Positions 7,669 to 60,723 of a stretch of 64,000 nucleotides of DNA are shown here, piece after piece. The DNA is taken from positions 1,251-65,250 of the forward strand of contig JBEKOB010000008.1 in the NCBI GenBank assembly GCA_049522195.1, given 5' to 3'. The stretch comes from Bacteroidota bacterium. GTDB lineage: Bacteria > Bacteroidota > Ignavibacteria > UBA10030. Position numbers and translations under genes: made by a program. The notes beneath the pieces were generated by a model. It did no database searches and had not been told where the DNA came from. It saw nothing but the letters and a program-made list of their open reading frames with translations. The stretch's first letter is position 1. Each line of letters opens with the position of its first letter.

Positions 7669-7699
7669 TCGCAATTCATATCGTCGAAAAGTTGCTGGC

Positions 7700-11208: not shown

Positions 11209-11246
11209 CGTGACTCACTCATCTGAGGTGATGCACACTGCAGCAT

Positions 11247-39239: not shown

Positions 39240-40130
39240 TTACGGGAGTGTGAGCTCCATACCTTCCCGCGCGCCGATGCATTCGGTCTTGCCGTCAATG
39301 AGCTTTGTAAGATGATTCGCTTCCTTCACCATCCCGTCCACAAAACTATCATCGTGATGCGGGTCGTGATGAAAGAGGGCCCATTTTTTCACATTGGCTT
39401 GAACCGCGAAACGCACAACAGACTCCACCGGGGAATGTCCCCACCCTCGCTTGTCTTTGTTGTACTCCTCTGTTGTGTATTGCGCCTCACCGATCAGAAG
39501 ATCCGCCTGCGAGAGAAACTCTACAAACTTCTCGTCGAGGTAAGTCGGAAAATCCAGGGCAGTCGCGGGATTCTGGGAGTGCTTGAACAGCGTTCCTTGA
39601 TACGGCTCGTTGTCGGTTGCGTACACAACGCTTGATTTTCCATCCGATACACGGTACGCGAGGCAAAGCGCAGGATGATTCAGGTAGAAGTGCCGCACGG
39701 AGAGTTCATTGATCGTAATATCTTCCCGCATTTCGTGGACGTGAAGATCAGCACTCATCGCCCCCAGCTCAACGGGGAAGTAATCCGAGTCCATCTGGAT
39801 CGTGAGGATCTTATCGAGCGATTTGTCGCGCCCCGGGGGACCGTAGAGGTGGATGGTGTTTTTCTTTTCGTATGCTGGAAGGAAAAAAGGAAAACCCTGG
39901 ATGTGATCCCAGTGGGTGTGACTGATGAAGACGTGGATCGTCAGAGGCTGGGTAGGAAATTCTTTGAGCAGTTGATCGCCGAGCTCACGGATGCCGGTGC
40001 CGGCGTCGAATATGACAATGTGGGAGCCTGTGCGTAACTCGACGCACGAAGTATTCCCCCCATAGCGCGTCGTCGAAGAACCCGGTGTGGCAATGGAACC
40101 GCGTGTGCCCCAGAAGCGGACCTTCATCAT
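39240..40130 (-). CDS. MBL-fold metallo-hydrolase
   Basis: ISHTHWDHIQG (HxHxDH) motif and the typical N-terminus MKVRFWGTRGSIATPG....YGGNTSCVEL. A 1-nt overlap (TAATG) links it to the receiver gene. Confidence 0.8.
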   Translation of the reverse strand: MMKVRFWGTRGSIATPGSSTTRYGGNTSCVELRTGSHIVIFDAGTGIRELGDQLLKEFPTQPLTIHVFISHTHWDHIQGFPFFLPAYEKKNTIHLYGPPGRDKSLDKILTIQMDSDYFPVELGAMSADLHVHEMREDITINELSVRHFYLNHPALCLAYRVSDGKSSVVYATDNEPYQGTLFKHSQNPATALDFPTYLDEKFVEFLSQADLLIGEAQYTTEEYNKDKRGWGHSPVESVVRFAVQANVKKWALFHHDPHHDDSFVDGMVKEANHLTKLIDGKTECIGAREGMELTLP

Positions 40131-41677: not shown

Positions 41678-44600
41678 ATGCGTACAACGTTGGTACGTGT
41701 TACTATTTTTTGTGCACTCTGCGCCACTCTTCTTCCGCCGGAAATTTCTCTCGGTCAAATCACAGGCGCAATCACATCGGACACGACTTGGGCAACGGGG
41801 ACGGTGATCGCAGATTCCGTCTATGTGATCGCCGGAAAAACGTTGACCATCCAGCCAGGGACGATCGTCAAGTTCAACAAGGCTCTGGTCATCGCCGGCA
41901 TCCTTAATGCGAACGGGACTTTGGCCAACCCAATCACGTTCACGGCAAACTCTGGTTCGCCCGCGCCTGGAGCATGGTACGGCATCGAATTCCAGAATAC
42001 TGCCAACGTCGGTTCTGTGTTCAACTATTGCGTCGTGAGCTACGCCGGCGGCGGGCCAAATGCAGCCGCTATCTTTTACAAGACTGGCGCCTACGCTATC
42101 AGCATATCCAACTGCGTAGTTAACTTCAGCTCCACGAACGGCATCAACGTCCGCGCATCCTCTCCCCATATCTGGCGATCGACATTCGACCAGAACGCCG
42201 GCTACGGAGTCTTCAGCGACTTTCTTACGACGTTCGTGGTCGACACCTCGTGCGTCATCACGCACAATACCGCGGGGGGCATTCGAATTGCCGTAAACGC
42301 GACTCCTGTGATCATGAACAGTCGGATCGATTCCAATGGGGTTGGAATCTTCATGGACAATGGCGCTCGCCCGACTATCACGAACAACTACATCCGCGGG
42401 AATTCCATCGGTCTGCAATTCACGGCGATCGGATCCGGCCAGCCCGTTATCACAGCGGATACAATTGTGGGAAACATTCAATGGGGATTCTACAACTCCA
42501 GCACAACGCAAACGGTTCTGGCAGAACGGAACTACTGGGGAAGCGATACCGGACCGTATAGTCCGACAAATAATCCGACAGGGCAGGGGGATCGCGTCAG
42601 CCCCCTTGTCGACTTCCAGCCCTGGAGCATCCAGGCATCAGCGCTGACCGTAACAAATGAGACTGCCACCATCGGCGGTAACACAACCTGGGCAAGTGGT
42701 GTGCACTGGGTGAAGAATAGCATCACCGTGAATGGTGGTATAACTCTGACGATCAATCCCGGTGTCATCGTGAAATTCGCTCCGGGGGCGCGTCTTCTGA
42801 TCAATGGCGCATTGATCGCGAACGGGCAAGCGAACAACATGATCATCTTCACTTCTGAAAAGGATGATAGTTACGGTGGCGATTCAAACGGAGATGGAAC
42901 AGCGACCGGGCCAAATCCAGGTGACTGGGATTGTGTGTACATGAATGGCGGCGGTGCCAGCTCGTTCTCGTATTGTATTTTCAAATTTGGTGGCTCCGGA
43001 GGTACGGCAAACTTGTACTTCGTGAATATCAGCCCCAACCCTGTTACGAACATCTTCTCAACGAATTCATCCAACTACGGTCTCTACCTGAATAGTTCTA
43101 ATCCAACAATCAGCAATTCCATCTTCGGTGGCAACGGATCGCATGGCATCCTGGCACAGGGGAATTCACGTTTGCAGATACACAAGTGCGTTTTCACAGG
43201 AAACGGCAGTTGGGGGATTGATGCCGACGGTGGCACCGCCAATGCCACGGTGGTTTCCATGGACAGCTCCAATGTCTCCCGCAATGGTGGTGGTGGTGTT
43301 TATAGTTGGTATTCCACGGGAGTTCAAACATTTTCCTACAATCGAGTCGATTCCAACGCAGCGACGGGTATCTGGACGTTCAATGTCGGAGGCCCGGATA
43401 CTGTCAAATATCTGAACAACGTCATCATAGGAAATGGGCAAGAAGGAATCGTTACGTCCCGGTCGTCCATTGTCAGCAATACAATTCAAAACAACCGCTA
43501 TCCGATCGCATTGTTGGGCAGAGTGAATTCAACGTACAGCGGGAATACGATCACCGGCAATGCCTACAATAATACTATCGCCCTCCGGCTAAACAGGTAC
43601 GAAGAGAGCTACTCCGACACATTGAAGGCAGTCTTCCCATCAAGCATGAGTTCTCCTGTCTACACGTTCATTGAAAACGCACCCGGATGGGGAGTGGTCG
43701 GGGGCAACACGCTGGTCATTCAACCCGGCGTCATTATCAAGATGGCTGCCGGCCTGTATTGGCGAGTGGAAGGCTCGCTGAAGGCAGACGCAAGTGCCGG
43801 GAGCCCGATTGTTTTTACCTCCTACCGAGACTCAACCTACGGGGGGAAGACAAATCTCCCGACCGATTACTCTTTGCCGGCGAGGGGGGACTGGGACTAC
43901 TTCCGCATCCGCACGTCTTCATCCGTCGGCACCGTCCTCAAAAATGTAATATTCAAATTCGGCGGCTACTCCTCCGGTGAGGGAACCCTTTGGATCGAAG
44001 CTCAGGCATCGCTCACGACACCGGTTACAAACGTCATCGTCCGAAAATCCTATTCGATGGGAATACGTACCGGCGACTCGCAGATTTCCTTCACGGGTAT
44101 TACCCTTGACAGCTGCGGTGCTGAAGGTATGTACATCGAAGGAAGCAGTACAAACGGCAGCGGCGTTTCGACGGGATCGGATATCACGATACAGAATTCA
44201 ACGATTACTGATAATGGTGCCACCGGCCTGCGTGCGACGAGCGGCTCCGCGTACAGGCAAATTTCCAACTGTATCATCCGACGCAATGGCAGTTGGGGGA
44301 TAGGCGTCGACAATGGTGCCATCCAGCAGTCCATCTCGGGGAATACGGTGACGAACAACGGCGGGGGCGGCATCTATGATTACAGTCCCTCGATGTCTAC
44401 TGCGAATATACAGTTTGTCGGCAATCTCGTTACGGATCACGGGGATGAAGGAATTCTCTCCACCGAAGCAAGATTTGTCGATAACACGATTCAACGCAAC
44501 AGGTACCCGATCGGTGTGTGGGGGCGGACGGGCAACAGCTACGTCGACAACAACGGAGTTGATGGCAATATCATTAGCGGGAACACGTACAACAATGCAA

Positions 44601-47299
44601 TTTCGCTGCGCGGCAACAGCGCTGAACCGCTCTACGACACGCTGAAGAATACATTCCCATCCGCAATCACTTCGAAGACCTACGTCGCAATCGAAGATTT
44701 CCAGGTCAACAACGGCACGATGCTGGTGATACAACCAGGTGTCAATCTCAAGTTCCAGAGATTTGGAGGGAGGGGCCCCATCTTTAACGCTTATGGAACG
44801 GTGCTTGCACAAGGGACTCAGGCAAATCCGATTGTCTTCACATCCTGGCACGACAGCATCGCAGGCGGAAAAACAACGACACCTACCGACTGGGGAATTC
44901 CCTTGCCCGGGGATATTTATTATGTCGGGTTCCGGAACGGGAGCGGTAGTTCAATTATCCGATACTGCCAGTTCAAGTTTGGCGGAGGCGATGGCCAACA
45001 AACCGTCTATTTCGACGCGAACCTTGGTGCAATGGTTTTCAGCAACAACCTCATCAGAAAATCGTCCACCTCTGGAATATATGTCAACAATACTCCCATA
45101 ACGATCGACAGCACAACAGTTGACAGTTGCTCGACCTACGGTATTTACCTCAGTGGCAACAATGCGTCCTCTGTGACATTGAGAAATAGCCGGGTTGCGT
45201 ACAATGGAAGCTATGGCATATGGGCGCGGACTTCATCATCATTTACCGAGATGACAAACTGCACCATTATCGGCAACGGGGCCACGGGTGCATATATCGA
45301 AAACAATGGTAACCCCGGCGTTGCGCTGCGCGTCACAAACTCCAATGCGAGCAACAACAACGGTCATGGTTTCTACATCTCGGCACTCAACAATACCATC
45401 GACACACTGTTACTCTTTAAGAATTGCACCGTGTCCAACAATGTTCTCGCGGGTATCTTTTCGTCTCGTGCTTATTTGATGAGCGACTCGATCTTCGGAA
45501 ATCGCTACGCAGTCGGCGTCCTTGGTCAGCTCACAAAGGATAGCACAGGAAACGTCTTCGGCAACGTGTATCGGACGAACACGGTTTTCAACAACACGTT
45601 TAAGAAGACGCTCGTGACGGAGGGAACAATCTATGGAACGCTTGGCGGTTCATATCTTGAGGGAGATTCAGCAAAGGTCGTAGCCGTGCGCGGCGACGCG
45701 TTCGTCGCGGGCGGATCGACTCTCACGATAACTCCTGGCACCATCATCAAATTCCCGCGTGAGTATGGTAACGGGCGGCTCGAAGTGCAGGGTGTGCTGA
45801 AGTCTGAAGGTACATCCACAAACAAGATCGTGTTCACTTCCTGGAAGGACGATACGTACGGAGGTGATTCCAATGCGGACAGTATTGCGACTGTTCCGGC
45901 ACCCGGCAATTGGGACATGATCTGGCTGAACGGAGCTAGCAACAACACATCCCACATTTTCAACACTATTGTGCGTTACGGGAGCTCTTCAAACAACGGA
46001 AACATTCGCATCGACAATAGCAGTGCACCCGTCGACTCGAGCTATGTCTCGTTCAGCAGCTGGGCTGGCATCTATCTCTACAATTCCTCTCCTGCCATCA
46101 CAGCGACCGAGATTCATCACAACGTGAACTATGCAGTCTACGGTGATGGCTCTTCGAGCCCGGTACTTCACTTGAACAACATTCACGACAATACTGGGGG
46201 AGGTGTGTTCAACAATACGACCAATACTTGGAATGCCACCAGCAATTTCTGGGGAGCTGTAAGCGGACCGTACAAGAACCAGGGCAGTCCACAGAACCTG
46301 ACCGGCACAGGAAACCGGATTTACCTCAACAACTCGGGTGACGTGAACTATACGCCATTCCTGACGACGCGCACCGGCGTTCTTATGGGTGATGTCAGCC
46401 TGAACGGCACGATCACATCCTATGACGCTGCCCTCATTCTGAAGCACCTTGTGGCTCCATTTCTTACGGGGTCACAGCTCTCGGCGGCAGATGTTTCAGG
46501 TGACGGCTCGGTGAGTGCACTCGACGCATCTTATATATTGCGATATGTTGTCGGTTTGATCACAGGATTCCCCGGTTTGGGCAAGACAAGCTCGAGCCCA
46601 TCCCTTGCTTCAGCTTACGATCTCCGGACTGTTCGCGGATCGACAGCGGATGAGATTCAGATCGTTCTGCACCTGAATGGAACCATCCCGCTCTACGCGA
46701 CAGAACTTCAACTTGCGTACGATTCGACGCTGGTCACTCCGGTGGACGTGAGGAAAACGCAGGTCACCGATGCGATGATGATCGACTTCCGGATGAATCC
46801 CGACACTACCAAGATCGCCATGGCCGGCACGATGCCCATTACGCAGGATGGGGATGTCGTTGTGGTCGTCTTCCACCTGAAGGACAAGGCAAAAGGACTT
46901 TCGACGGTAGACTTCAAGGTCGTCCGTCTCATCCTGAACGAAACCAACGTGACTCCCGACGTCAAGCAGGTCGTGGTCAGTGCCGGCTTGGAGCCTGCGC
47001 TTCCTACGACGTTTGAAGTGGGTCAGAACTACCCCAATCCATTTAATCCCACAACAACGATTCAGTATCAGCTTCCTGCAACCAGTGTCGTGACAATTAC
47101 AGTGTACGACCTGCTGGGACATGAGATACGATCGTTGGTCAGTGGTGAGCAAGCTCCGGGGTACTACAGGGTAGTCTGGGATGGAAGAGACAGCCACGGC
47201 CTCCAGGTCGCAAGCAGTGTCTACTTCTACAGGATCCATGCTGTCTCGAACGACAGTCGGACGTTTACCACCGTTCGAAAAATGATGCTTCTGAAATAG
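41678..47299 (+). CDS. Giant secreted parallel beta-helix repeat protein with dockerin-like, cohesin-like and T9SS sorting domains
   Basis: The start is taken at MRTTLVRVTIFCALCATLL (signal peptide). It contains long runs of about 22-aa beta-helix turns (N.I..N...GI....). Five roughly 1-kb modules each end in an IVFTS..DD.YGGD.N.......P.PGDW junction. Confidence 0.85.
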   Translation: MRTTLVRVTIFCALCATLLPPEISLGQITGAITSDTTWATGTVIADSVYVIAGKTLTIQPGTIVKFNKALVIAGILNANGTLANPITFTANSGSPAPGAWYGIEFQNTANVGSVFNYCVVSYAGGGPNAAAIFYKTGAYAISISNCVVNFSSTNGINVRASSPHIWRSTFDQNAGYGVFSDFLTTFVVDTSCVITHNTAGGIRIAVNATPVIMNSRIDSNGVGIFMDNGARPTITNNYIRGNSIGLQFTAIGSGQPVITADTIVGNIQWGFYNSSTTQTVLAERNYWGSDTGPYSPTNNPTGQGDRVSPLVDFQPWSIQASALTVTNETATIGGNTTWASGVHWVKNSITVNGGITLTINPGVIVKFAPGARLLINGALIANGQANNMIIFTSEKDDSYGGDSNGDGTATGPNPGDWDCVYMNGGGASSFSYCIFKFGGSGGTANLYFVNISPNPVTNIFSTNSSNYGLYLNSSNPTISNSIFGGNGSHGILAQGNSRLQIHKCVFTGNGSWGIDADGGTANATVVSMDSSNVSRNGGGGVYSWYSTGVQTFSYNRVDSNAATGIWTFNVGGPDTVKYLNNVIIGNGQEGIVTSRSSIVSNTIQNNRYPIALLGRVNSTYSGNTITGNAYNNTIALRLNRYEESYSDTLKAVFPSSMSSPVYTFIENAPGWGVVGGNTLVIQPGVIIKMAAGLYWRVEGSLKADASAGSPIVFTSYRDSTYGGKTNLPTDYSLPARGDWDYFRIRTSSSVGTVLKNVIFKFGGYSSGEGTLWIEAQASLTTPVTNVIVRKSYSMGIRTGDSQISFTGITLDSCGAEGMYIEGSSTNGSGVSTGSDITIQNSTITDNGATGLRATSGSAYRQISNCIIRRNGSWGIGVDNGAIQQSISGNTVTNNGGGGIYDYSPSMSTANIQFVGNLVTDHGDEGILSTEARFVDNTIQRNRYPIGVWGRTGNSYVDNNGVDGNIISGNTYNNAISLRGNSAEPLYDTLKNTFPSAITSKTYVAIEDFQVNNGTMLVIQPGVNLKFQRFGGRGPIFNAYGTVLAQGTQANPIVFTSWHDSIAGGKTTTPTDWGIPLPGDIYYVGFRNGSGSSIIRYCQFKFGGGDGQQTVYFDANLGAMVFSNNLIRKSSTSGIYVNNTPITIDSTTVDSCSTYGIYLSGNNASSVTLRNSRVAYNGSYGIWARTSSSFTEMTNCTIIGNGATGAYIENNGNPGVALRVTNSNASNNNGHGFYISALNNTIDTLLLFKNCTVSNNVLAGIFSSRAYLMSDSIFGNRYAVGVLGQLTKDSTGNVFGNVYRTNTVFNNTFKKTLVTEGTIYGTLGGSYLEGDSAKVVAVRGDAFVAGGSTLTITPGTIIKFPREYGNGRLEVQGVLKSEGTSTNKIVFTSWKDDTYGGDSNADSIATVPAPGNWDMIWLNGASNNTSHIFNTIVRYGSSSNNGNIRIDNSSAPVDSSYVSFSSWAGIYLYNSSPAITATEIHHNVNYAVYGDGSSSPVLHLNNIHDNTGGGVFNNTTNTWNATSNFWGAVSGPYKNQGSPQNLTGTGNRIYLNNSGDVNYTPFLTTRTGVLMGDVSLNGTITSYDAALILKHLVAPFLTGSQLSAADVSGDGSVSALDASYILRYVVGLITGFPGLGKTSSSPSLASAYDLRTVRGSTADEIQIVLHLNGTIPLYATELQLAYDSTLVTPVDVRKTQVTDAMMIDFRMNPDTTKIAMAGTMPITQDGDVVVVVFHLKDKAKGLSTVDFKVVRLILNETNVTPDVKQVVVSAGLEPALPTTFEVGQNYPNPFNPTTTIQYQLPATSVVTITVYDLLGHEIRSLVSGEQAPGYYRVVWDGRDSHGLQVASSVYFYRIHAVSNDSRTFTTVRKMMLLK
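46388..46555 (+). other. Dockerin-like module (two Ca-loop/helix segments)
   Basis: GDVSLNGTITSYDAALILKHLV ... ADVSGDGSVSALDASYILRYVVG. The second segment fits the D.S.DG.V...D + helix dockerin pattern; the first is slightly degenerate. Confidence 0.6.
46655..46982 (+). other. Cohesin-like module
   Basis: IQIVLHLNGTIPLYATELQLAYDSTLVTPVDV....GDVVVVVFHLKDKAKGLSTVDFKVVRLILNE follows the cohesin pattern (v.V.l......a..f.l.YD...l........G.l..i.Fk......G...i........n). Confidence 0.5.
47012..47296 (+). other. T9SS (Por) C-terminal sorting domain
   Basis: FEVGQNYPNPFNPTTTIQYQLP.....ITVYDLLGHEIRSLV...QAPGYYRVVWDGRD..G..VASSVYFYRI. Confidence 0.8.
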
Positions 47300-47357
47300 A
47301 CGTGAATGTCAGAGGGGAAATGATCAATCACCGTCATTCACGAACTCTTGAAGGGCA

Positions 47358-50300
47358 TTGATGTCTCACACACTTAGGTCGACACTACTCAGCATCGCGT
47401 TGGTGGTTTGTCTGGTCGCGGCAGCAGAACCCGCTGCCGCCCAGGCCAAACTCCTCACGGTGCCCGATACGACGGCGAAGAAAGGTGATACGCTGCTGGT
47501 CCCGCTGCGCATTTCGAGCCTCGCGACGCTCGACAGCGTGTACTCCGGGCAGTTCACCCTCTCCTACAATTCCGGGGTGATGTATATCTACGACATCTCC
47601 ACTGCCGGCACACTCCTCGCGGGAACGGGAAATGTTTCCTTTAATCCCACCACGCGTCAGCTTGCGTTCGCTTCCGGAACGATCATCACCGGCTCAGGGC
47701 CCCTTATCTACCTGAAAGTCGCCACTTCTGCCAGTCCGTCGTCTTTGACGGATGTCATAAGCGTTACCTCTGCGGCTTTCAATGAGGGAACTCCTGCCAT
47801 TACGATCCACAATGGGAACTTCCGGTTCCGGACGATCACCATTTCGCCGAAGACTCCTCCGGGAAATCTTGTCGTTGGTGATTCTCTTCAGTTCTCGGTC
47901 TCCGGCGACCAGATCCCACCACTCACGTGGACGTCGTCGAATCCCTCCTTTGCGACTATCGACGCAAACGGGAAACTGCATGGCGTGGGAGTCGGGCAGC
48001 TGACTGTGTACGTCCAGGATTCGCAGGGCCTAAGGGACTCAACGAACCTGTTCCCAATCAACTCGCCTCTGCTCAACAGTCTCACGCTGTCGCTGCATGA
48101 TACAAGTTACACGCAGACGCTGACTTTCAATCTGCCAGTCTATATATCAGACGTGACGAGTCTTGGCATCATTTCTTCGCAATTCACGCTGACGTTCAAC
48201 TCATCGATTCTTCAGGCATTGGACGTGATCAAGGCGGGATCAATGAGTTCAACCTGGACGGCCCCTGCTTACAATATTTCGGGGGGACGCATCGACGTTG
48301 CTCTTGCTGGAAGTCAGCCACTGTCCGGCTCAGGGGTTTTGGTGTACGTGCGTTTCAAAGTACTCCCTGCTGCATCAGGCTCCACCACGATTGCGTTGTC
48401 AAATGTCCTGTTTAATGAGACGATCCATGCTTCGCTCGTCAACGGCAACTTCGGGACGATTGCAGCCCCCATTCTGATTATAGCGCCGGCGACGGGGATC
48501 TTGACCAAAGGAGACACGACAACCTTCCGTGTTACAAGCGGTGGACATCCCCCCTACTCCTGGACGAGCACCAGTCCTTCTGTCGCGACGATCAACAACA
48601 CGACCGGGCTTCTGACTGCTATTGCCCGTGGAACAACCACTGTCGCCGTCGTTGATTCTCTCAGCTTTACCGCGACGTCCGGCTCAATTGCCGTCAACGA
48701 CCTGCGGGTTTCGTTGCCGGACACGTCCGTGAACATTGCCGACTCCGTTGATGTCCCGATTACCACAGATCTCCTCACAGGACTCGGCATCTACTCGTAC
48801 GATTTCAGGCTTGTGTACGACTCGACTGTCGTGAAAATTGCCCAAGTATTGACCGCGGGAACACTGAGCAGCGGCATGACGATCGCAGTGCGCGATACGG
48901 TTGACACACTCCGTGTCGGCGCAGCTGGACCGGCCCCTCTGAGCGGTTCCGGTACACTGCTGAAAATTCGTTTCAAGGCCGCCCCGGGAGTTAGCCTCAG
49001 TCAATTGAGCAGCACACGCTTCGCGTTCTTCAATTTCAACGAGCCTGGTTCAGGGACTGCGACTGCTACGCCTCGCAACGGATCGATAACAATTGGCAAC
49101 GTGCTCCCTTCGGCTCCTGCTGCACCAACGCTCCTTTCCCCAACGACAGGGGCTACAGGTGTGGCCGTGGCGCCTGCACTGAGCTGGAATGCATCGACAG
49201 GAGCCACAAGTTACACGTTGCAGGTCTCCACAGTGGCCAATTTTGCGTCAACGGTTGTCAACCAAAGTGGAATTGCGGCTACGTCATTCAGCGCTTCTGG
49301 ACTGGCTAATAATACCCTTTATTACTGGCGCGTCAGCGCGACCAATGCAGGAGGGACGAGCGCGTACTCCACCGGGTTCTCGTTCACAACGATCATTGCT
49401 GCTCCGCCTCCTCCGTCTCTTGTCTCACCGGCCAGTGCGTCGACCGGTGTTTCCCTTACACCAACACTCAGCTGGAATGCCGCCTCCACGGCGACGAGTT
49501 ACACCGTGCAGGTGTCGACAGATCCGGCGTTCGGCTCGTTTGTGATCAATCAGGCCGGAGTAGCTTCGACATCGTATGTTGCGGGAGGGCTTTCGGGTAA
49601 CACGACGTACTATTGGAGGGTGAGTGGAACAAATGTGGGCGGCGCAGGTAACTACTCAAGTGTTTTCAACTTTGCAACGGGGTCGGGGGCTCCTGCTGCG
49701 CCGGTGCTCTCTTCGCCGCACGATACAGCAACAGCCATCGCTCTGAGCCCGACACTGAGTTGGAACGCCGTGACCGGAGCAACAAGCTACACGTTGCAGG
49801 TTTCGACAGCTGCTGATTTTTCAGCACTTGTCGTAAATCAAAGTGGCATCGCGGGGGTCTCGTCTTCGGTAGGTCCTTTGACCGCGACTACTCTTTATTA
49901 CTGGCGCGCCAGTGCGACAAACGCTGGAGGCACGAGCGCTTTTTCCTCCGCATTCAGATTTACAACGGCCATAGCTCCACCTGCAGCTCCAACGCTCGTC
50001 TCGCCGCACGACACAGCGACGGGCATCGCGGTGAATCCGACATTGACATGGAACTCTTCCGCCACGGCGACATCGTACACCGTACAAATCTCAACGAGTC
50101 CAACCTTTTCCTCGTTTGTTGTCAATCAAAACGGCATTGCGACGAACTCGTACAACGCGACTGGATTGGGGGGAGTCACCCTTTACTTCTGGCGTGTGAG
50201 CGCGACGAATGCAGGAGGATCGAGCGCTTTTTCCAGCACATTATCTTTTACCACAACCTTGAGCCCTCCAGCAGCTCCCACTCTCTCGACACCGCAGAAT

Positions 50301-52616
50301 GGAGCAGTCTTAGTTTCTGTGAGTCCGACGCTAAGCTGGAATGCGTCTGTGGGGGCCACAAGTTACACTCTCCAGGTATCAACGGCCGCAGATTTCTCGG
50401 CACTGATCGTCAACCAGAGCGGCATTACAGGAACCTCGGCGCCCGTCTCCGGATTGTCTAACAGCACGGTGTATTATTGGAGGGTGAGTGCGAGCAATGT
50501 AGGCGGATCGAGTTCATATTCGTCCGCATTTACTTTCACGACTATAATAGCTCCGCCGGCCGCGCCCTCACTCCTTTCGCCCCACGATACGGCAACAGGT
50601 GTCGCGATAAGTCCATCGTTCACATGGAATACTTCTCCGACAGCGACGTCGTACACAATTCAAGTCTCAACGAGCCCGAGTTTCGCGTCCTTTGTCGTCA
50701 ACGTAAGCGGTATCACACCGACTTCGTACAACGCGTTTGGACTGGGCGGCAACGGCACGTTCTATTGGCGCGTGAGTGCAACAAATGCCGGCGGGACGAG
50801 TTCCTTCTCCGCTCCATTTTCGTTTTCAACACTATTGACGGCGCCGTCGGCGCCGACGCTGGTTTCGCCGGCGAACATCGCTACAGGTATTTCGACTAAT
50901 CCGACTCTCAGCTGGAATGCCTCGCCAGCGGCGACGAGCTACTTTTTAGAGGTATCGACCGCTGCCGATTTCTCGGTCCTGATCGTATTCCAACCTAGCA
51001 TTGCGGCCACGTCCTACAATGCGAGCGGGTTGCTCCCGAATACACAATATTATTGGCGCGTAAGCGCCGCGAATACGGCAGGGGGAGGGTCATTCTCGAG
51101 TGCATTTTCATTTACAACAGGAATTGCGCTCGCGGCTCCGACGCTCATCTCGCCTGCGAATGGTGCGACAGGTGTTTTACGGTTTAGTGCGATCTTGATC
51201 TGGCATCCCTCTGCTGGCGCGACGTCGTATAAAGTGCAAGTTTCCCTAACTTCGGACATGTCACTCTTGGTAGTAGATCAGTCAAACATTACCGACACTT
51301 CGTTTACTCTTGGACAATTGGCTCCTGGTACACAATACTACTGGGCAGTGAAGCCAGTAAATGCCGGTGGAGAGGGTGTATCCTCGGCAGTTTATTCGTT
51401 TACAACGATCGTGTCCCTTCCACAGGCTCCAGCGCTCATCTCGCCTTCGAATGGTGCGACTAGCGTTTCGCCGACCAATCCAACGTTAATCTGGCATTCT
51501 TCTGCTGGTGCCACGTCGTATACACTTCTAGTTTCCACAACGGCAAATATGTCAGCCTTGATCGTAAACCAATCCAACATCACTGACACTTCATTCACTC
51601 TGGGAGTATTGAGCCTCGGTGCACAGTTCTACTGGGCCGTAAGGCCAGCGAATGCAAGCGGACAGGGTCCAATCTCCGCTGTCTATTCGTTTACAGTAAT
51701 CACGCCTCCCCAGGCCCCGACGCTGATCTCGCCCGCGAATGGTGCGACCAGTGTTTCGCCGAATAATCCAACGTGGGTCTGGCATTCTGCCGCTGGTGCG
51801 ACGTCGTATACGCTTGCGGTATCCACAAACGCAAACATGACAGACTTGATATTGATCCATCCAAATATCTCCGACACTTCGTTTACTCTCGCAGGATCAT
51901 TGAATTATGGTACACAATACTATTGGGGCGTAAGGCCGGCGAATGCAAGCGGAGAGGGCGTATTCTCTGCTGTCTTTTCGTTTACAACGATCGTTATCCG
52001 TCCACAGGCCCCTCCGACCCTCATCTCGCCTGCGAATGGTGCGATTAGTGTCTCACCTAATAATCCAACATTGGTCTGGCATTCTGTAGCAGGTGCGACG
52101 TCATATACACTTTTGGTTTCCACAACTGCAGACATGTCGGCGTTGATACTAAACCGCCCAAATATCACAGACACTTCGTCTACTCTTGGAGTCTTGAACT
52201 CAGGCACACATTACTACTGGGCTGTGAGGCCGGCGAATGCTGGCGGAGAGGGTGTATTCTCTACGGTGTTTTCCTTCACGACGGCGGGCGCGGCGACACT
52301 GGTCGAGTACATGAAAAGCTCAATTGCCGACAAATACCTGCTGGATCAGAACTATCCGAACCCGTTCAACCCATCCACGATGATACCCTATTCATTACCG
52401 CACAGGAGCGTAGTTCGCGTGTCAGTCTACTCTCTCCTTGGAACCGAGGTTGCGGTGCTTGTCAACGGTGAGCGGTCGGCGGGATCGTACGAAGTGCGGC
52501 TCGATGCAGCCGCATTTCCTTCAGGAGTCTATCTTATAAAAATGCAGGCTTCGCCGCTCGAAGGAGGTACCGGGCAACCGTTTGTTGCCACCAGAAAGGT
52601 TGTCCTGCTCAAGTAG
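47358..52616 (+). CDS. Giant secreted protein: 3 cohesin-like and 2 Big_2-like modules, 11 FN3-like repeats, T9SS sorting domain
   Basis: Signal peptide ending AAAQA, and one uninterrupted 1752-codon ORF. The start lies 58 nt after the previous gene. Confidence 0.85.
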   Translation: MMSHTLRSTLLSIALVVCLVAAAEPAAAQAKLLTVPDTTAKKGDTLLVPLRISSLATLDSVYSGQFTLSYNSGVMYIYDISTAGTLLAGTGNVSFNPTTRQLAFASGTIITGSGPLIYLKVATSASPSSLTDVISVTSAAFNEGTPAITIHNGNFRFRTITISPKTPPGNLVVGDSLQFSVSGDQIPPLTWTSSNPSFATIDANGKLHGVGVGQLTVYVQDSQGLRDSTNLFPINSPLLNSLTLSLHDTSYTQTLTFNLPVYISDVTSLGIISSQFTLTFNSSILQALDVIKAGSMSSTWTAPAYNISGGRIDVALAGSQPLSGSGVLVYVRFKVLPAASGSTTIALSNVLFNETIHASLVNGNFGTIAAPILIIAPATGILTKGDTTTFRVTSGGHPPYSWTSTSPSVATINNTTGLLTAIARGTTTVAVVDSLSFTATSGSIAVNDLRVSLPDTSVNIADSVDVPITTDLLTGLGIYSYDFRLVYDSTVVKIAQVLTAGTLSSGMTIAVRDTVDTLRVGAAGPAPLSGSGTLLKIRFKAAPGVSLSQLSSTRFAFFNFNEPGSGTATATPRNGSITIGNVLPSAPAAPTLLSPTTGATGVAVAPALSWNASTGATSYTLQVSTVANFASTVVNQSGIAATSFSASGLANNTLYYWRVSATNAGGTSAYSTGFSFTTIIAAPPPPSLVSPASASTGVSLTPTLSWNAASTATSYTVQVSTDPAFGSFVINQAGVASTSYVAGGLSGNTTYYWRVSGTNVGGAGNYSSVFNFATGSGAPAAPVLSSPHDTATAIALSPTLSWNAVTGATSYTLQVSTAADFSALVVNQSGIAGVSSSVGPLTATTLYYWRASATNAGGTSAFSSAFRFTTAIAPPAAPTLVSPHDTATGIAVNPTLTWNSSATATSYTVQISTSPTFSSFVVNQNGIATNSYNATGLGGVTLYFWRVSATNAGGSSAFSSTLSFTTTLSPPAAPTLSTPQNGAVLVSVSPTLSWNASVGATSYTLQVSTAADFSALIVNQSGITGTSAPVSGLSNSTVYYWRVSASNVGGSSSYSSAFTFTTIIAPPAAPSLLSPHDTATGVAISPSFTWNTSPTATSYTIQVSTSPSFASFVVNVSGITPTSYNAFGLGGNGTFYWRVSATNAGGTSSFSAPFSFSTLLTAPSAPTLVSPANIATGISTNPTLSWNASPAATSYFLEVSTAADFSVLIVFQPSIAATSYNASGLLPNTQYYWRVSAANTAGGGSFSSAFSFTTGIALAAPTLISPANGATGVLRFSAILIWHPSAGATSYKVQVSLTSDMSLLVVDQSNITDTSFTLGQLAPGTQYYWAVKPVNAGGEGVSSAVYSFTTIVSLPQAPALISPSNGATSVSPTNPTLIWHSSAGATSYTLLVSTTANMSALIVNQSNITDTSFTLGVLSLGAQFYWAVRPANASGQGPISAVYSFTVITPPQAPTLISPANGATSVSPNNPTWVWHSAAGATSYTLAVSTNANMTDLILIHPNISDTSFTLAGSLNYGTQYYWGVRPANASGEGVFSAVFSFTTIVIRPQAPPTLISPANGAISVSPNNPTLVWHSVAGATSYTLLVSTTADMSALILNRPNITDTSSTLGVLNSGTHYYWAVRPANAGGEGVFSTVFSFTTAGAATLVEYMKSSIADKYLLDQNYPNPFNPSTMIPYSLPHRSVVRVSVYSLLGTEVAVLVNGERSAGSYEVRLDAAAFPSGVYLIKMQASPLEGGTGQPFVATRKVVLLK
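47445..49096 (+). other. Three cohesin-like modules (about 47445-47830, 48078-48458, 48701-49096) interleaved with two Big_2-like modules
   Basis: Each cohesin-like unit has G(D)tl.VP(l/i)......l..(i/v)yS.qFtL.Y(n/d)S.v.........G.......... G.l.y(l/v).Fk...... and ends in NGNF/NGSI. The Big_2-like units show G.(s/t)..F.V......(Y/L).WTS(S/T).PSvATI...G.l.a...G...V.V.D. Confidence 0.5.
49107..52284 (+). repeat. Eleven in-frame tandem repeats of about 288 nt (about 96 aa, FN3-like)
   Basis: The repeat unit is P.AP.L.SP..(G/T)AT(G/S)V...P.L.W....GATSYTLQVST...(F/M)S.L(V/I)(V/I)NQS.I..TS....L...T.YYW(R/A)V...NA.G.......F.FTT. Units 1-7 form an SWN/WRVSATNAGG type and units 8-11 an IWHS/WAVRPANA.GEG type. 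Confidence 0.85.
52335..52613 (+). other. T9SS (Por) C-terminal sorting domain
   Basis: YLLDQNYPNPFNPSTMIPYSLP.....VSVYSLLGTEVAVLVNGERSAGSYEVRLDA..FPSGVYLIKM. Confidence 0.8.
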
Positions 52617-52986: not shown

Positions 52987-53052
52987 GGTGAATATCCAAT
53001 GTCGAACGCCCAATAACGAATGATGAAGTGAGTTGTTTGTTCGTCGGGATGA
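52987..53052. repeat. Direct repeat copy B (3' flank plus the last 9 nt of tRNA-Pro)
   Basis: See copy A. It starts ggtgaatatccaatgtcgaa and ends tcgtcgggatga, which overlaps the tRNA acceptor 3' strand. Confidence 0.7.
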
Positions 53053-53118
53053 CAGGATTCGAACCTGCGACCCCCTGCGCCCAAGGCAGGTGCTCTAACC
53101 GGGCTGAGCTACATCCCG
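53044..53118 (-). tRNA. tRNA-Pro: tRNA-Pro (anticodon TGG)
   Basis: The - strand reads CGGGATG TA GCTC AGCCCGGTTA GAGC A CCTGC CTTGGGC GCAGG GGGTC GCAGG TTCGAAT CCTGT CATCCCG A. This is a full cloverleaf with a TTCGAAT T-loop and anticodon loop C-T-TGG-G-C. No CCA is encoded. Confidence 0.9.
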
Positions 53119-54036
53119 AAGAAAATCAAAGGTTTTTCCATCTCGCCGCTCGCAAAAAGCATCAAACTAGGGTAGTCTGTTAGCAGTTTGTTAGCAGCTC
53201 TTCCCTCTTGAACCCACTGCATTCGCTCCCCAAATGGTCATTCTTTACCACCGCTCGTTAGCAACACGTTGGGGAATAGCCTTTGGATCCGTCAGTCGAG
53301 CGTATTGAATGATTTCAGTTGCGCACACAATGTACGGAAGGTTGATCACGGACGCAAGGCGTTCGTAGCGGCCCAAACATTCTGCAGACACGTCGTTCTG
53401 TAGAGGCGGTTCTTCCCGTGTCTCCTCCACCGGCACGTTTCTCTGGACTCAGACTGCAAAATGAATTTCTGCAAGAATCGATTTCCGAGCCCGAAAAGTC
53501 CGAGGGTAGAAAAGGACCGCTTAGAATCAGCTTTTTTCCATCGTTGGTCTGGAACAGCTGTTAGCGAATTGCCCCACTACTAATGGGCGAATTTAGAATC
53601 AACGTACTGATGTCTGTGTTTTCCCCAAGAATTGAACAAACTGAAGACCGAAGTCATTTAGCAAGAATACTAGATCCATGATCTAGTACACAAAAACAAA
53701 AGACCCCTGTAGACAGAGAGGTTTTGAGTTACCAGCGATCCAGATGTCACCAAAAAGTTACAATTCCGCGAAAGCCTCTCTCTCGTTGAAGGTGTGGTCT
53801 TGACAAGCGAGAAAATCTCCTCCTCAATGGCTCGATTACGAGTGTTGTTCCGGGGGTCTCCTGCCTACGTATCCATTAGCCTAGCGCAAATACCCAACGA
53901 GCGGCTCGCAGTAAGTCGGTTCTGATTCGATGCTAAAATCGGTGCTAACTCAAGGAACCGGTGTCCGATACAACGAGAGGTAAGCATCCTTCTGGCGCAA
54001 CCACTCACTCAAGACCGATCAAAGAGTCACCTCACA

Positions 54037-54070
54037 ATCCCCGCACCTGCACCTGCAACCGTGTGGGGAT
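54037..54070 (+). repeat. GC hairpin repeat, copy 1 (upstream of the LuxR-type gene)
   Basis: ATCCCCGCAC-ctgcacctgcaacc-GTGTGGGGAT followed by ttctgtttca. It uses the same stem as copy 2, and its loop carries an extra CCTGCA hexamer. Confidence 0.6.
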
Positions 54071-54110
54071 TTCTGTTTCATGCGGAAGTAACAAATGAGG
54101 AACGAACAAC

Positions 54111-54335
54111 TTGAGACTCAAGACCAAGAAACGATTCTTAGGGAGACCCCCTGCACCGAAAGAGCTTGAGACATGGAGGTTGTTGGCTCAAGGACTCACG
54201 AGTAAGGAAATCGCGAGAAAGCGACGGGTGTCGGTCGGAACTATAGAGACAGTTCGATCAATACTCTTGAGCAAGCTCGGTGCGCGCAACACTCCGACAC
54301 TGATCGCTATGTGGTACAGGCAGGAGAAGAAATGA
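54111..54335 (+). CDS. Stand-alone LuxR/GerE-type HTH protein (74 aa)
   Basis: LETWRLLAQGLTSKEIARKRRVSVGTIETVRSILLSKLGARNTPTLI fits the LuxR C-terminal HTH pattern. TTG start with AGGAA 8 nt upstream; there is an in-frame stop 12 nt upstream of the start. Confidence 0.65.
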   Translation: MRLKTKKRFLGRPPAPKELETWRLLAQGLTSKEIARKRRVSVGTIETVRSILLSKLGARNTPTLIAMWYRQEKK

Positions 54336-54363
54336 GATGCACAAAACCTGATCAGAAATCAAA

Positions 54364-54391
54364 ATCCCCGCACCTGCAACTGTGTGGGGAT
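54364..54391 (+). repeat. GC hairpin repeat, copy 2 (probable terminator of the LuxR-type gene)
   Basis: ATCCCCGCAC-ctgcaact-GTGTGGGGAT followed by tgccgtttca, 29 nt after the stop codon. Confidence 0.6.
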
Positions 54392-54527
54392 TGCCGTTTC
54401 AGGGGGAATGTGAGGCGGGGACGGTGGTGGTGAAGACGGTGGTGAGGAGGGATATCATATCATTCGAGCTTCAGCGGAGGCAGTTTGTACCACTCGAATG
54501 CGATCATAGCGATCCGGGTCGCTCAAA

Positions 54528-55010
54528 TCATTTCCGCTTTGACTTACCACTGCTCGTTTGCCCCCGCTCCCATCTGTCCTTCGCCTTCGCATCCACCTTG
54601 GTCTGCCACTGCATGTTGGAGGGGTTATCCCTACCACCGTTGGCCAATGGAATGATATGATCGATAACATATCCAGGCCGTCCGTGCGGATAGCCAGTCT
54701 GCTTCATGAATTGACGTTTCGCCGCCTCACTCCGTTTGATCTTGCCATGTGAATCTCGCTGGACTCCCGTTACGTAGGATTTGCGGTGGGTAGTTGATGA
54801 ACGTATGCTTGGGGCTGACTTCTTCTGGCGTGACGGAGATGACCGGTAGTGACTTGATGAGGATCGTGAATGAGATTGGTAGGTTCGGCTATGAGTTACA
54901 AATGACCGTTTGCCCCCTTTGGATCTTTGTGCGTCGATTGTGGCTGGGGCGAGCAGTAGGCATGCCAGCGCTACGACAAAGGCAGATACTAATCTACGGT
55001 TCATTGCCAT
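54528..55010 (-). CDS. Signal-peptide HNH (His-Me finger) nuclease domain protein
   Basis: MAMNRRLVSAFVVALACLLLAPATIDAQ signal peptide, a Ser/Arg/His-rich linker, then GYVIDHIIPLANGGRDNPSNMQWQTKVDAKAKD (HNH pattern DH.iPl..GG.d...N.Q). The ORF track start at 55040 would overlap the receiver gene. Confidence 0.65.
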   Translation of the reverse strand: MAMNRRLVSAFVVALACLLLAPATIDAQRSKGGKRSFVTHSRTYQSHSRSSSSHYRSSPSRQKKSAPSIRSSTTHRKSYVTGVQRDSHGKIKRSEAAKRQFMKQTGYPHGRPGYVIDHIIPLANGGRDNPSNMQWQTKVDAKAKDRWERGQTSSGKSKRK

Positions 55011-55026
55011 GCCACCCTGGTCACAT

Positions 55027-55407
55027 TCACGGGATACCACCTATTGCGTTTCGCACCGAAGCCAGAATCTCACTTAAACCAGAAGGTTTGAGAATGAAGT
55101 AGAAGGCACCCAAGCGCTTTGCCTCAAGAACCGTTTCCCTGTTCGCATTGCCGGACCAAAAAATAACAGGAGTATCCGCTATGTCTGGATCCGCTTTAAG
55201 TGCCTTAAGGAACTGGAGTCCATCCATGAAGGGTGAGTTGATGTCAGTGATATTCACATCCGCATGGTGTTCTCTGAGCCATGATATTCCAATACTCTTG
55301 GACTCCAATCCGTAGACCTTAAAGCCCGCCTTTTCCAGCTCTTTAATCAGAAGAAGCACAAGATTTTTCTCGTCATCCAGAACCAAAATTACCTTGGGGT
55401 TCATCAC
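55027..55407 (-). CDS. Orphan single-domain response regulator (receiver only)
   Basis: KVILVLDDEKN...DVNITDINSPFMDG...VIFWSG...FILKP: the receiver landmarks DD, D, S/T and K are all present. Confidence 0.75.
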   Translation of the reverse strand: MMNPKVILVLDDEKNLVLLLIKELEKAGFKVYGLESKSIGISWLREHHADVNITDINSPFMDGLQFLKALKADPDIADTPVIFWSGNANRETVLEAKRLGAFYFILKPSGLSEILASVRNAIGGIP

Positions 55408-55458
55408 AGAACGTACTCTCTAATTGCTTGTTTGATGTCTTTTTCAATACCAATTGAT

Positions 55459-55749
55459 CTACGCCGCCCTGGTAATGTTGATCGAACACCACTGCCCCAC
55501 GGTCATCTCACTTCCGGTGATCTTTGTACCAGCCTGCCTCAAGCATACATGTCGATTCAACGGATCACCCAGCCATTCAAGAACCATCCTGCCATTGATC
55601 TCCGCGTCCGAATGCGTCTTGAATAGGAACGCTTCATCGACATTCGCTGACCAGTTGATGGAGTTGAGATCCCAGAACTCAAAATGGCTCAGGTATTCCT
55701 TGCTGTCGGTGCGGCGCAGGATGGTGTATGTGGTTGGGAGGTGATTCAT
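55459..55749 (-). CDS. Small protein of unknown function (96 aa), paralogue of the 55-codon ORF at 57269..57436
   Basis: AAGGAAGGA lies directly upstream of the ATG. The first about 50 residues align with the other small ORF, and many of the differences are synonymous third-position changes (see findings). Confidence 0.65.
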   Translation of the reverse strand: MNHLPTTYTILRRTDSKEYLSHFEFWDLNSINWSANVDEAFLFKTHSDAEINGRMVLEWLGDPLNRHVCLRQAGTKITGSEMTVGQWCSINITRAA

Positions 55750-55835
55750 TCCTTCCTTGACTCATTTAATACGTTGGAGCATTCCAGAACGCTGATTCTG
55801 CGAGCGCCGGTTTGCCATTTGTCAGCCGGCGTGCC

Positions 55836-57272: not shown

Positions 57273-57436
57273 TGCAGACCTTTCTTCGTTTTGGACCCAG
57301 CATCAAAGACAATTGCCATGTGATTCACGTGCGCAGACCATTGCAGTGAATTCCGATTCCAGAATTCGAAATGAGTCAGATATTCGTTGGTGTCGGTGCG
57401 GTGGAGGATGATGAATGTCAACTGGAACTCATTCAT
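57269..57436 (-). CDS. Small ORF (55 codons, not in the ORF track), translationally coupled to the TIR gene
   Basis: My translation is MNEFQLTFIILHRTDTNEYLTHFEFWNRNSLQWSAHVNHMAIVFDAGSKTKKGLQ*. Its TGA overlaps the TIR ATG (ATGA at 57269-57272). It is a paralogue of 55459..55749. Confidence 0.6.
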   Translation of the reverse strand: MNEFQLTFIILHRTDTNEYLTHFEFWNRNSLQWSAHVNHMAIVFDAGSKTKKGLQ

Positions 57437-57486
57437 GCTTATTCCGGTGTTTCGCTGGATTCTGCTGGCTCGACCTTTTTGGACGC

Positions 57487-57774
57487 TTATAGCAATTTCG
57501 CACGAACAAGACGAGCGACAATTCTGGCAAACTCATCCGCCACTTGTTCCTTCGGAGCGGGATCGTCGGCGACCTTCATCACGATTTCCCACTCAAGGGC
57601 ACGCTTGCCCTTTCCCCAAACTGTTTTGAATCGACCGAGTTCTTTGCCAGCGTTTGGTGATTGGGTTCGCATTGAAGAATTGTCGTCCGCAGCAGATGGG
57701 GCCGCATACTCGGCAACGAGATCTAGCTCATTTCTACCATCGACAAAGGGAAAATCCGCGTTGAGCACGCGCAC
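57487..57774 (-). CDS. Hypothetical protein (95 aa)
   Basis: It is co-directional, lying 43 nt after the HEPN gene and 50 nt before the small ORF. I recognise no motif in it. The antisense + strand ORF 57371..57778 is judged spurious. Confidence 0.4.
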   Translation of the reverse strand: MRVLNADFPFVDGRNELDLVAEYAAPSAADDNSSMRTQSPNAGKELGRFKTVWGKGKRALEWEIVMKVADDPAPKEQVADEFARIVARLVRAKLL

Positions 57775-57817
57775 ATAACAATCCTCTCTTCAATACGCAT
57801 CGTTTGCGTAACGTGAG

Positions 57818-59751: not shown

Positions 59752-59758
59752 TCATACT

Positions 59759-60601: not shown

Positions 60602-60723
60602 TCACTTTTCTTTCTCGCTGTCGGCCTTTGTTTGTATGAACTTCAACCGTTGAGCCCGATTGCGCCACATCAGAGATTCTTGACCTTTTGTTTTGTACGA
60701 TCTCCAAGCGTCGTTTTTCGATT

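Follow-up and report, generated by a model that had tools for sequence, protein, structure and literature searches.

A 64,000-nucleotide stretch of contig JBEKOB010000008.1 from an uncultured Bacteroidota bacterium of peat soil (GenBank assembly GCA_049522195.1), referred to here as the window, carries two long open reading frames (ORFs) on the plus strand, designated A and B, that occupy 41.6-52.6 kb and encode giant secreted proteins with a dockerin and a cohesin on A and three cohesins on B. By the sequence and fold criteria tested, A and B belong to the Dockerin_1, Cohesin and type 9 secretion system (T9SS) type-A cargo families. A was followed by B, adjacent and on the same strand, in all 21 of the other loci for which upstream DNA was available, the B proteins being 31-77% identical. 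The reading we favor, and in which we place about half of our confidence, is that A and B form a conserved cassette of Ignavibacteria-type Bacteroidota and are Sec-exported, T9SS-sorted proteins that would assemble through non-cellulosomal cohesin-dockerin contacts. We infer the binding events, their calcium dependence, T9SS export, the surface location and a role in adhesion or a surface matrix rather than in enzymatic degradation.

ORF A extends from 41636 (TTG opening) or 41678 (ATG start) to 47299, and ORF B from 47358 (TTG) or 47361 (ATG) to 52616. With the ATG starts, gene A (41678..47299, plus strand) encodes a secreted giant of 1873 aa, as given by the ORF list, the translation and a public gene call of 1873 aa, and gene B (47361..52616, plus strand) is translated into a tri-cohesin, scaffoldin-like T9SS cargo protein of 1751 aa. 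The gap between them is 58 nt if B is counted from its first possible TTG, or 61 nt from the ATG used in the public gene calls, and a terminator scan of this spacer (47300..47360, plus strand) found no terminator-like hairpin. A sigma-70 promoter scan gave 5 sites as against 8.9 in shuffled sequence, Bacteroidota promoters lying outside the coverage of the scan. The two genes are probably co-transcribed as a two-gene cassette. The dockerin, cohesin and C-terminal sorting domain (CTD) profiles were run against all six frames of the window (622 ORFs, minimum length 50 aa), and matches were confined to A and B, even at E<=1. The exact gene B protein was present on two public contigs, the window sequence was also contained in the 150-kb metagenome contig ENA ERZ27250144 k141_474290, and near-identical DNA was found in DNA sequencing runs of peat, wetland and pond metagenomes; none of the public RNA runs searched contained the locus.

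Read from its N-terminus, protein A has a signal peptide and then five beta-helix blocks, followed by a single dockerin, a single cohesin and, at the end, a T9SS type-A CTD. The N-terminal Sec-type signal peptide, MRTTLVRVTIFCALCATLLPPEISLGQ (41678..41758, on the plus strand like all features of A and B), was recognized by inspection of the translation. The passenger that follows (41759..46342), delineated by Pfam and a motif scan, is about 1550 aa long and comprises five right-handed parallel beta-helix blocks, four of which open with the motif FTSxxDxxxGG[DK]...PxPGDW (aa 391, 713, 1054 and 1386, numbered from the ATG). Beta_helix scored 179.8 bits over seven stretches and NosD 79.9 bits in the whole-protein Pfam scan. 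A search of the PDB by sequence found no relative of the passenger, and a profile of ten passenger orthologues matched NosD (7o0y) alone and weakly (E 3.5e-5). Whole-protein scans with Pfam and NCBIfam detected no catalytic family or carbohydrate-binding module (CBM) in either A or B.

The type-I-like dockerin of A (46388..46549) was assigned from PF00404, matches to dockerins in the PDB and the helices of an AlphaFold2 model. It scored 48.2 bits when scanned alone and 40.8 bits within the whole protein (PF00404, gathering cut-off (GA) 22.9), and the Pfam match covered ORF residues 1585-1638, residue 1585 being at window position 46388. Both duplicated segments of a dockerin are present, DVSLNGTITSYDAALILKHLV and DVSGDGSVSALDASYILRYVV, each with a 12-residue Ca loop (DVSLNGTITSYD and DVSGDGSVSALD, respectively) that is followed by a helix; positions 1, 3, 5, 9 and 12 are D,S,N,T,D in one loop and D,S,D,S,D in the other. 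Sequence matches in the PDB were best with dockerins (8x3a, E 2.5e-14; 4uyp_B; 3ul4_B; 2ccl_B), the nearest solved relatives being functional dockerins. The linker directly after the module (46550-46585) reads GFPGLGK in the window and GFPGLG[KR] in 10 of the 11 aligned A sequences; it is GFPSLGK at the locus designated L008, the linker of another, L003, was not aligned, and the F-P pair is kept in 80-90% of the wider family of such tails. This strongly kept linker may be part of the dockerin-cohesin interface or a processing site.

The cohesin of A (46613..46981), a module of nine beta-strands identified by PF00963, AlphaFold2 and Foldseek, scored 30.7 bits alone and was matched at aa 1665-1768 in the whole-protein Pfam scan. 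It is followed by the CTD (47006..47296; TIGR04183, FlgD_ig), which gave 30.4 bits with TIGR04183 and 40.4 bits with FlgD_ig when isolated; in the whole-protein scan TIGR04183 gave 21.9, just under its cut-off, and Pfam described the C-terminus as FlgD_ig / Por_Secre_tail. The cut-offs for these and the following modules were GA 24.1 for PF00963, 22.8 for PF02368 and 27 for PF18962, and 23 for TIGR04183.

In protein B the order is cohesin, Big_2, cohesin, Big_2, cohesin, eleven fn3 repeats and a T9SS CTD. The signal peptide MSHTLRSTLLSIALVVCLVAAAEPAAAQA (47361..47447, by inspection of the translation) leads into cohesin 1 (47433..47837; PF00963, 35.8 bits), and cohesin 2 (48063..48470; 44.8 bits) and cohesin 3 (48696..49112; 39.4 bits) are each preceded by a Big_2 Ig-like spacer, at 47838..48062 (PF02368, 34.6 bits) and 48471..48695 (29.0 bits). 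The stalk (49122..52295) was recognized by Pfam fn3, Ig_Rha78A_N and Pur_ac_phosph_N and by motif spacing as eleven fn3-like repeats with a period of 96-98 aa, and the protein ends in a T9SS type-A CTD (52335..52613; TIGR04183, 32.1 bits; PF18962, 27.8 bits). The whole-protein Pfam scan returned the same architecture, with three Cohesin matches (91.6 bits), two of Big_2, the fn3-like array and Por_Secre_tail (PF18962) at 27.8 bits. At the DNA level the last four fn3 repeats form a 291-nt tandem array (51134-52261, 3.9 copies, 75% identity by Tandem Repeats Finder), while the first seven have diverged beyond detection by that program. The stalk is hypervariable among orthologues, which can be as short as about 780 aa or exceed 2300 aa in total, and from these sequences it appears to grow and shrink by gain and loss of repeats.

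By sequence criteria A and B are thus both cargo of the Sec/T9SS type. A preliminary description of the locus had placed a dockerin-like module, a cohesin-like module and a T9SS domain in succession on the first protein, and three cohesin-like modules and a T9SS end on a second protein 58 nt downstream. Both architectures were borne out when the profiles PF00404, PF00963, PF02368 and TIGR04183 were run, every module scoring above its curated cut-off. The bounds given there, 46388-49096, also fit, since the first is dockerin residue 1585 and the second lies near the end of cohesin 3 of B.

The tail of A was modeled with AlphaFold2. The whole tail (35-sequence alignment) gave a predicted local distance difference test score (pLDDT) of 88.1 and a predicted template modeling score (pTM) of 0.69, and the dockerin and cohesin alone (206 aa) gave a pLDDT of 92.5 and a pTM of 0.89, with mean pLDDT values of 91.5-92.5 across the five models. 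The two-module model consists of a 65-aa helical module, a low-confidence linker of about 12 residues and a 125-aa beta-sandwich. The dockerin has three helices (residues 16-27, 33-39 and 49-59) and the cohesin is a nine-stranded sandwich with a pLDDT of about 95, for which the top 50 Foldseek matches in the PDB were all cohesins, type I first (5nrk_A, TMt 0.67; 3ul4_A, 0.66; 2xdh, 0.67). Because a pTM of 0.89 means confident relative placement, the dockerin is predicted, on the basis of this score, to pack on A's own cohesin as one compact unit, although AlphaFold2 can draw a contact between molecules as one within a single chain. Since the model predicts a compact unit, the first partner of the dockerin may be A itself. 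Polymerization through A's own cohesin, as the preliminary description had suggested, gains indirect support from the same model.

The conservation of the pair was examined from the side of B. Its tri-cohesin N-terminus, used as a query, gave 153 homologues at E<=1e-3, mostly of 670-1030 aa, and genomes were scanned with a profile of a 9-sequence alignment of B N-termini, a 27-sequence version being too diverse. The 21 loci mentioned above consist of 13 from genomes or long contigs and 8 informative metagenome loci, and A was directly upstream of B in 13/13 and 8/8, respectively. The metagenome scan had added ten loci, of which the two that begin at a contig edge lack upstream DNA. The carriers are Bacteroidota/Ignavibacteria-type metagenome-assembled genomes (MAGs) and metagenome contigs. 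Nine GTDB species-representative MAGs labeled Bacteroidota or Ignavibacteriaceae (L004-L012) all had A followed by B, with B 41-54% identical and A orthologues of 1861-1931 aa that share a conserved N-terminal beta-helix block. On a 3.5-Mb contig (L003), a gene ending in dockerin, cohesin and CTD, its tail 37% identical to that of A, lies directly upstream of one encoding cohesin, Big_2, cohesin, Ig and cohesin modules and a terminal CTD. Three remote B homologues of about 32% identity (L013, L014 and L015) also had an A-type gene directly upstream; a custom HMM recovered A-type dockerins in remote loci that precomputed Pfam annotation had missed. Among the other loci with called genes the A-B spacer was 15-66 nt and no neighbor besides A and B was recurrent. 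Because the pair recurs in every related genome examined, A and B probably work together, and a functional link is strongly supported by synteny. The synteny and the expansion of the cluster at some loci form the pattern expected of physically interacting proteins, a pattern that is in itself one of association.

Several loci depart from the simple two-gene layout. The A orthologue of L003 (L003:6706-11530) is split into four consecutive beta-helix genes on the same strand, of 344, 316, 376 and 509 aa. The split looks like the result of long-read frameshift errors or of gene decay, not like an A that is really short. L008 (CALRWV020000004.1, a 397-kb contig) has the full cassette, with B 49% identical, in a record titled Prosthecochloris vibrioformis, a green sulfur bacterium, the labels of all other carriers being Bacteroidota or Ignavibacteriaceae; either the bin is mislabeled or the cassette extends to Chlorobiota. 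At L028 and L029 (L028:2-18115, L029:2-11051) B has four cohesins, and L028 also encodes a 437-aa protein with cohesin and CTD and, downstream, another giant ORF with a dockerin. B is followed by small cohesin-only ORFs at L013:12186-12743 and L025:6758-7255, and by further giant CTD proteins in L005, L009 and L011. A tri-cohesin subfamily has no T9SS CTD (P0183, P0189 at L014:10001-12475, and about 12 B-family proteins of about 795 aa), and Pfam gave no match in the C-terminal 240 aa or so of P0183 and P0189. Two dockerin-like Ca-loop motifs, ADGNGNGLIQNTD and GDFNLNGLVQNTD, were seen by eye in this region of P0189, which has an A-type gene upstream. Should these loops prove to be true dockerin segments, the B proteins of those lineages would themselves act as plug-bearing adaptors.

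The modules have diverged to very different extents. The dockerin is the best conserved, at 54-73% identity to the window in ten orthologous loci. Identity was 48-65% for cohesin 2 of B, the best kept of the cohesins, in close, complete orthologues and 45-59% for the N-terminal beta-helix block of A in nine full-length orthologues; the cohesin of A is the least conserved (19-34%). A nearly frozen dockerin beside a fast-drifting cohesin hints weakly at a dockerin constrained by several partners, small Ca-binding modules being intrinsically constrained. With few exceptions among the aligned orthologues, all four cohesin types share two hallmark motifs, A.AG (strand 6) and [LFV]NE (end of strand 8), and in the tail family as a whole these are likewise where the cohesin is conserved best. 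The best-kept cohesin positions, A151, N189 and E190, are on strands 6 and 8. Mean conservation was 0.44 for the face formed by strands 8-3-6-5 and 0.38 for that formed by 9-1-2-7-4, a difference too small to pick the binding face.

Identity among the three cohesins of B is only 31-38%, and between them and the A cohesin it is 21-27%. In L004-L011 each of the three scored 64-177 bits against its positional counterpart and less than 50 bits against its sister modules, and cohesin 1 in particular gave 75-127 bits with positional orthologues as against at most 41 bits with paralogues. From these comparisons the B cohesins would be three types of long standing, each maintained separately, which sets them apart from primary scaffoldins with their near-identical cohesins. 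Because each resembles its positional orthologue more than its sisters, distinct specificities are suggested, and because they are old, divergent paralogues, a simple 1:3 stoichiometry of the first protein to the second, as had been proposed, is disfavored and looks doubtful.

In the reading we favor, A and B would cross the inner membrane via Sec and the outer membrane via the T9SS, after which their type-A CTDs would be cleaved and the proteins either attached to the surface or released. A would display its long, non-catalytic beta-helix passenger on a dockerin-cohesin pedestal, and its Ca-binding dockerin would recognize A's own cohesin, either as a clasp in cis or head-to-tail between A molecules. 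B would be a trivalent cohesin hub, carried on Big_2 spacers and an fn3 stalk, that may capture the A-type dockerin, other dockerin-bearing cargo or both in a multivalent surface complex, much as Amy4 of Ruminococcus bromii binds both its own cohesin and the scaffoldin Sca2. The earlier proposal of a matched pair forming a cell-surface scaffold is partly supported: the modules are real, the proteins are of the Sec/T9SS cargo type and the pair is kept in 21/21 loci; as to which cohesin the dockerin would plug into, the structural prediction points to that of A first.

Several observations weigh against this reading: 1) position 3 of both Ca loops of the A dockerin is Ser rather than Asp or Asn, an atypical residue that is kept across the family, 2) the cohesins of B resemble each other as little as described above, 3) the dockerin of A may be permanently occupied by A's own cohesin, as the structural model would allow, 4) docking is not needed for surface retention, because A and B each carry their own anchor signal, 5) no component of the T9SS machinery (PorK/L/M/N, Sov, PorU/V) was seen among the scanned genes of the window, and 6) at three of three checked loci where the tail of A occurs on other passengers, no B-like tri-cohesin neighbor was present.

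The last point concerns a much larger family. A search with the dockerin-cohesin-CTD tail of A gave 1727 hits, dozens of which combine PF00404, PF00963 and a CTD on passengers as varied as beta-helix, Kelch, PKD, He_PIG and HYDIN/ASH, in sequences labeled Ignavibacteriales, Bacteroidota, Rhodothermales, Marinimicrobia and Zixibacteria. An exhaustive phmmer search of 1.84 billion representatives with the dockerin-cohesin di-domain found 5183 proteins when matches were accepted at E<=1e-3, of which 655 reached E<=1e-10. Among the 150 best-matching representatives, 88 had dockerin and cohesin within one stretch, in proteins of 233-4626 aa, and in 79 of these 88 the match ended 80-130 aa (median 107) from the C-terminus, the size of a CTD; 50 of the 150 were multi-dockerin proteins. 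Because it occurs on many unrelated cargoes, three of which were checked and had no tri-cohesin neighbor, the tail behaves as a portable, self-contained unit.

These data bear most directly on the main alternative, a possible but less probable one, in which the dockerin-cohesin tandem is an intramolecular spacer or clasp ahead of the CTD that never contacts B, B binds dockerins encoded elsewhere and the synteny reflects shared regulation or function with no contact between the A dockerin and the B cohesins. The confident placement of the two modules as a unit (pTM 0.89) speaks for such a clasp, as does their joint occurrence in 88 of the 150 best representatives, 79 of them ending at CTD distance from the C-terminus. 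The tail is found on Kelch and other passengers with no tri-cohesin neighbor at the three loci checked, the clusters examined hold more cohesins than dockerins, and the multi-dockerin proteins (50 of the 150) could serve as ligands for B. However, a closed tandem leaves the strict 21/21 adjacency unexplained at the level of the modules, the dockerin is far more conserved than the A cohesin that would be its sole partner, and AlphaFold2 often renders an interaction between molecules as an intrachain one.

A wider proposal, which we regard as speculative and unlikely, would make the tail a general T9SS-coupled device for self-assembly in bacteria of the Fibrobacteres-Chlorobi-Bacteroidetes (FCB) group. 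Once secreted, each cargo would insert its dockerin into the cohesin of its neighbor, and the resulting head-to-tail daisy chains would hold varied passengers in a proteinaceous surface lattice; the tri- or tetra-cohesin B proteins would be branching hubs and the A-B cassette the core of the lattice.

It is also quite improbable that the modules only resemble cohesins and dockerins and serve as Ca-stabilized spacers or carbohydrate- or ligand-binding domains, with A and B as adhesins or surface-layer components that act independently and without mutual binding. The literature searched yielded no experimentally tested cohesin-dockerin pair of the FCB group, the cohesin scores are modest (30-45 bits) and the A cohesin evolves fast, all of which would agree with such a view. 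Against it, the dockerin has both canonical duplicated segments and functional dockerins as its closest solved relatives, the A cohesin has the canonical fold according to AlphaFold2 and Foldseek, and the two module types are kept together, within a tail and within an operon, over great phylogenetic distances, as is expected of a binding pair. Non-cellulosomal cohesin-dockerin pairs of Archaeoglobus fulgidus and Clostridium perfringens have been reported to bind. The non-cellulosomal pairs tested in R. bromii do bind as well (PMC4611034). A chance origin of the modules was rejected in view of E-values of 1e-7 to 1e-12 and of the 21/21 synteny.

A true cellulosome-like degradative complex, with B as a scaffoldin for dockerin enzymes and A as a beta-helix lyase or hydrolase, is very improbable: some polysaccharide lyases do have beta-helix/CASH folds, a gene for a heparinase II/III-like protein is found upstream in opposite orientation and a T9SS-anchored scaffoldin with dockerin enzymes has been proposed for Ca. 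Stygibacter (PMC8542988), but A and B have no catalytic family of carbohydrate-active enzymes (CAZymes) and no CBM, the A passenger matches NosD alone and weakly in the PDB, the heparinase gene is absent from the other loci with listed neighbor genes and the B cohesins are not near-identical repeats. A cellulosome in the strict sense was rejected on two counts, as the window encodes no enzyme-borne dockerin and B has no CBM and has cohesins that are 31-38% identical and, among the closer orthologues, positionally orthologous, which does not suggest a single specificity. Because no enzyme or CBM is present, the A-B system is not a cellulosome.

The cassette is of interest as a fixed two-gene unit kept across deeply diverged Ignavibacteria/Bacteroidota lineages, outside the Gram-positive setting, as is the tail common to 88 of the 150 best-matching representatives. 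What is understood of cohesin-dockerin assembly comes, to our knowledge, almost wholly from the cellulosomes and amylosomes of Gram-positive bacteria. Should the contacts be real, plug-and-socket modules would organize the T9SS cargo of environmental FCB bacteria on the outer membrane, with a bearing on the way in which adhesive or protective surfaces are built by uncultured bacteria of peat and wetland, and the cassette would supply new orthogonal cohesin-dockerin pairs for protein engineering. The concept itself would be no surprise, as non-cellulosomal cohesin and dockerin modules, self-binding proteins that carry both and T9SS-anchored scaffoldins have already been described or proposed.

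The flanking genes bear no relation to A and B. Those upstream, which run on the opposite strand, encode a response regulator, a metallo-beta-lactamase (MBL)-fold protein and the heparinase II/III-like protein; the MBL-fold protein (39240-40130) has a weak precomputed match to Anti-Pycsar_Apyc1 (PF23023) beside Lactamase_B_2, which is probably generic MBL similarity. A tRNA-Pro (53043-53118, minus strand) lies downstream of B, and beyond it (53043-63771) the GC content drops from about 0.52 to 0.42-0.47. Four defense-like genes are found there, encoding a TIR-domain protein (55836-57272), a TPR + HEPN_LA2681 protein (57818-59470), an HNH_5 protein (59759-60601) and an Eco57I/MmeI-like fused restriction-modification enzyme (60724-63771), and the region is probably a defense island that inserted at the tRNA. 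Small ORFs occupy the interval from the tRNA to the TIR gene (54111-55407), among them one of 74 aa with a LuxR/GerE-like helix-turn-helix sequence and one of 170 aa (54528-55040, minus strand) with a signal-peptide-like start and the HNH-like motif DHIIPLANGG...NMQW, both read from the translation, and one of 126 aa that is a stand-alone response-regulator receiver, for which a Response_reg gene call exists on the contig. A minus-strand cluster at 3704-14224 encodes four paralogous APC-family amino-acid permeases, a membrane H+-pyrophosphatase, a soluble pyrophosphatase and a sodium:dicarboxylate symporter, which suggests a lifestyle based on the uptake of amino acids or peptides.

Non-cellulosomal cohesins and dockerins are widespread and often occur on the same polypeptide; the proteins that carry them were reportedly surveyed by Peer et al. 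in 2009. The cohesin of A. fulgidus (PDB 2xdh), from outside the cellulolytic organisms, was among both the sequence and the structure matches obtained here. No description of the A-B cassette or of the dockerin-cohesin-CTD tail was found in the open-access literature searched. The genome of M. roseus, of the Ignavibacteria lineage, encodes Por-sorted cargo but no dockerins on its cellulases (PMC3534657).

A and B share the Dockerin_1 and Cohesin Pfam families with the classical cellulosome, such as Clostridium thermocellum CipA and its type I dockerin enzymes. The A cohesin is structurally nearest to type I cohesins (Foldseek TMt 0.62-0.69), and the segments of the A dockerin are near-symmetric, as in type I dockerins with a dual binding mode. 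However, A and B have no CAZymes or CBM, the scaffold cohesins are 31-38% identical rather than near-identical, and both proteins end in a T9SS CTD in a Gram-negative host instead of being anchored by S-layer homology (SLH) domains or sortase.

One of the three closest precedents, itself in the FCB group, is Ca. Stygibacter (Cloacimonadota), for which a multi-cohesin scaffoldin anchored by a T9SS CTD and accompanied by dockerin enzymes has been proposed (PMC8542988). The two systems have in common a scaffoldin-like protein that bears cohesins in tandem and a T9SS-type CTD for self-attachment, and secreted proteins that bear dockerins. In Ca. Stygibacter, however, the dockerins are on GH18, GH57 and peptidases and the scaffoldin has CBMs, while no enzyme or CBM is present in A or B. 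Here the dockerin protein also has a cohesin and a CTD of its own, and the fixed two-gene cassette is the defining feature.

In the Chlorochromatium green-sulfur epibiont, a cohesin-dockerin contact was inferred with AlphaFold3 between the adjacent giants Cag_2037, with an N-terminal cohesin, a beta-helix epimerase/lyase and repeats-in-toxin (RTX) motifs, and Cag_2038, with BIg repeats and a C-terminal dockerin (bioRxiv 10.64898/2026.03.19.712371). As with A and B, these are neighboring giant surface proteins of the Bacteroidota-Chlorobiota lineage with complementary modules, one partner having a beta-helix and the other Ig-like repeats. They differ in being exported by a type 1 secretion system (T1SS) with an RTX motif and not by the T9SS, in having one cohesin and one dockerin, as against four and one in A and B, with no dockerin-cohesin tandem, and in being specific to a symbiosis, whereas the A-B cassette is conserved across lineages.

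Another of these precedents, and the one that the proposed assembly mirrors, is R. bromii, where the dockerin of Amy4 was shown to bind its own cohesin as well as that of Sca2, the anchoring scaffoldin (PMC4611034). Amy4, like A, has a cohesin and a dockerin on one protein. It is, however, a GH13 enzyme of a Firmicute and Sca2 is sortase-anchored, whereas A and B belong to a Gram-negative organism, both have a T9SS CTD and neither has a detected enzyme. In A, known from sequence and models, the dockerin directly precedes the cohesin, right ahead of the CTD. Binding of Amy4 to its own cohesin gives autoaggregation and, by analogy, the same logic may apply to A and B.

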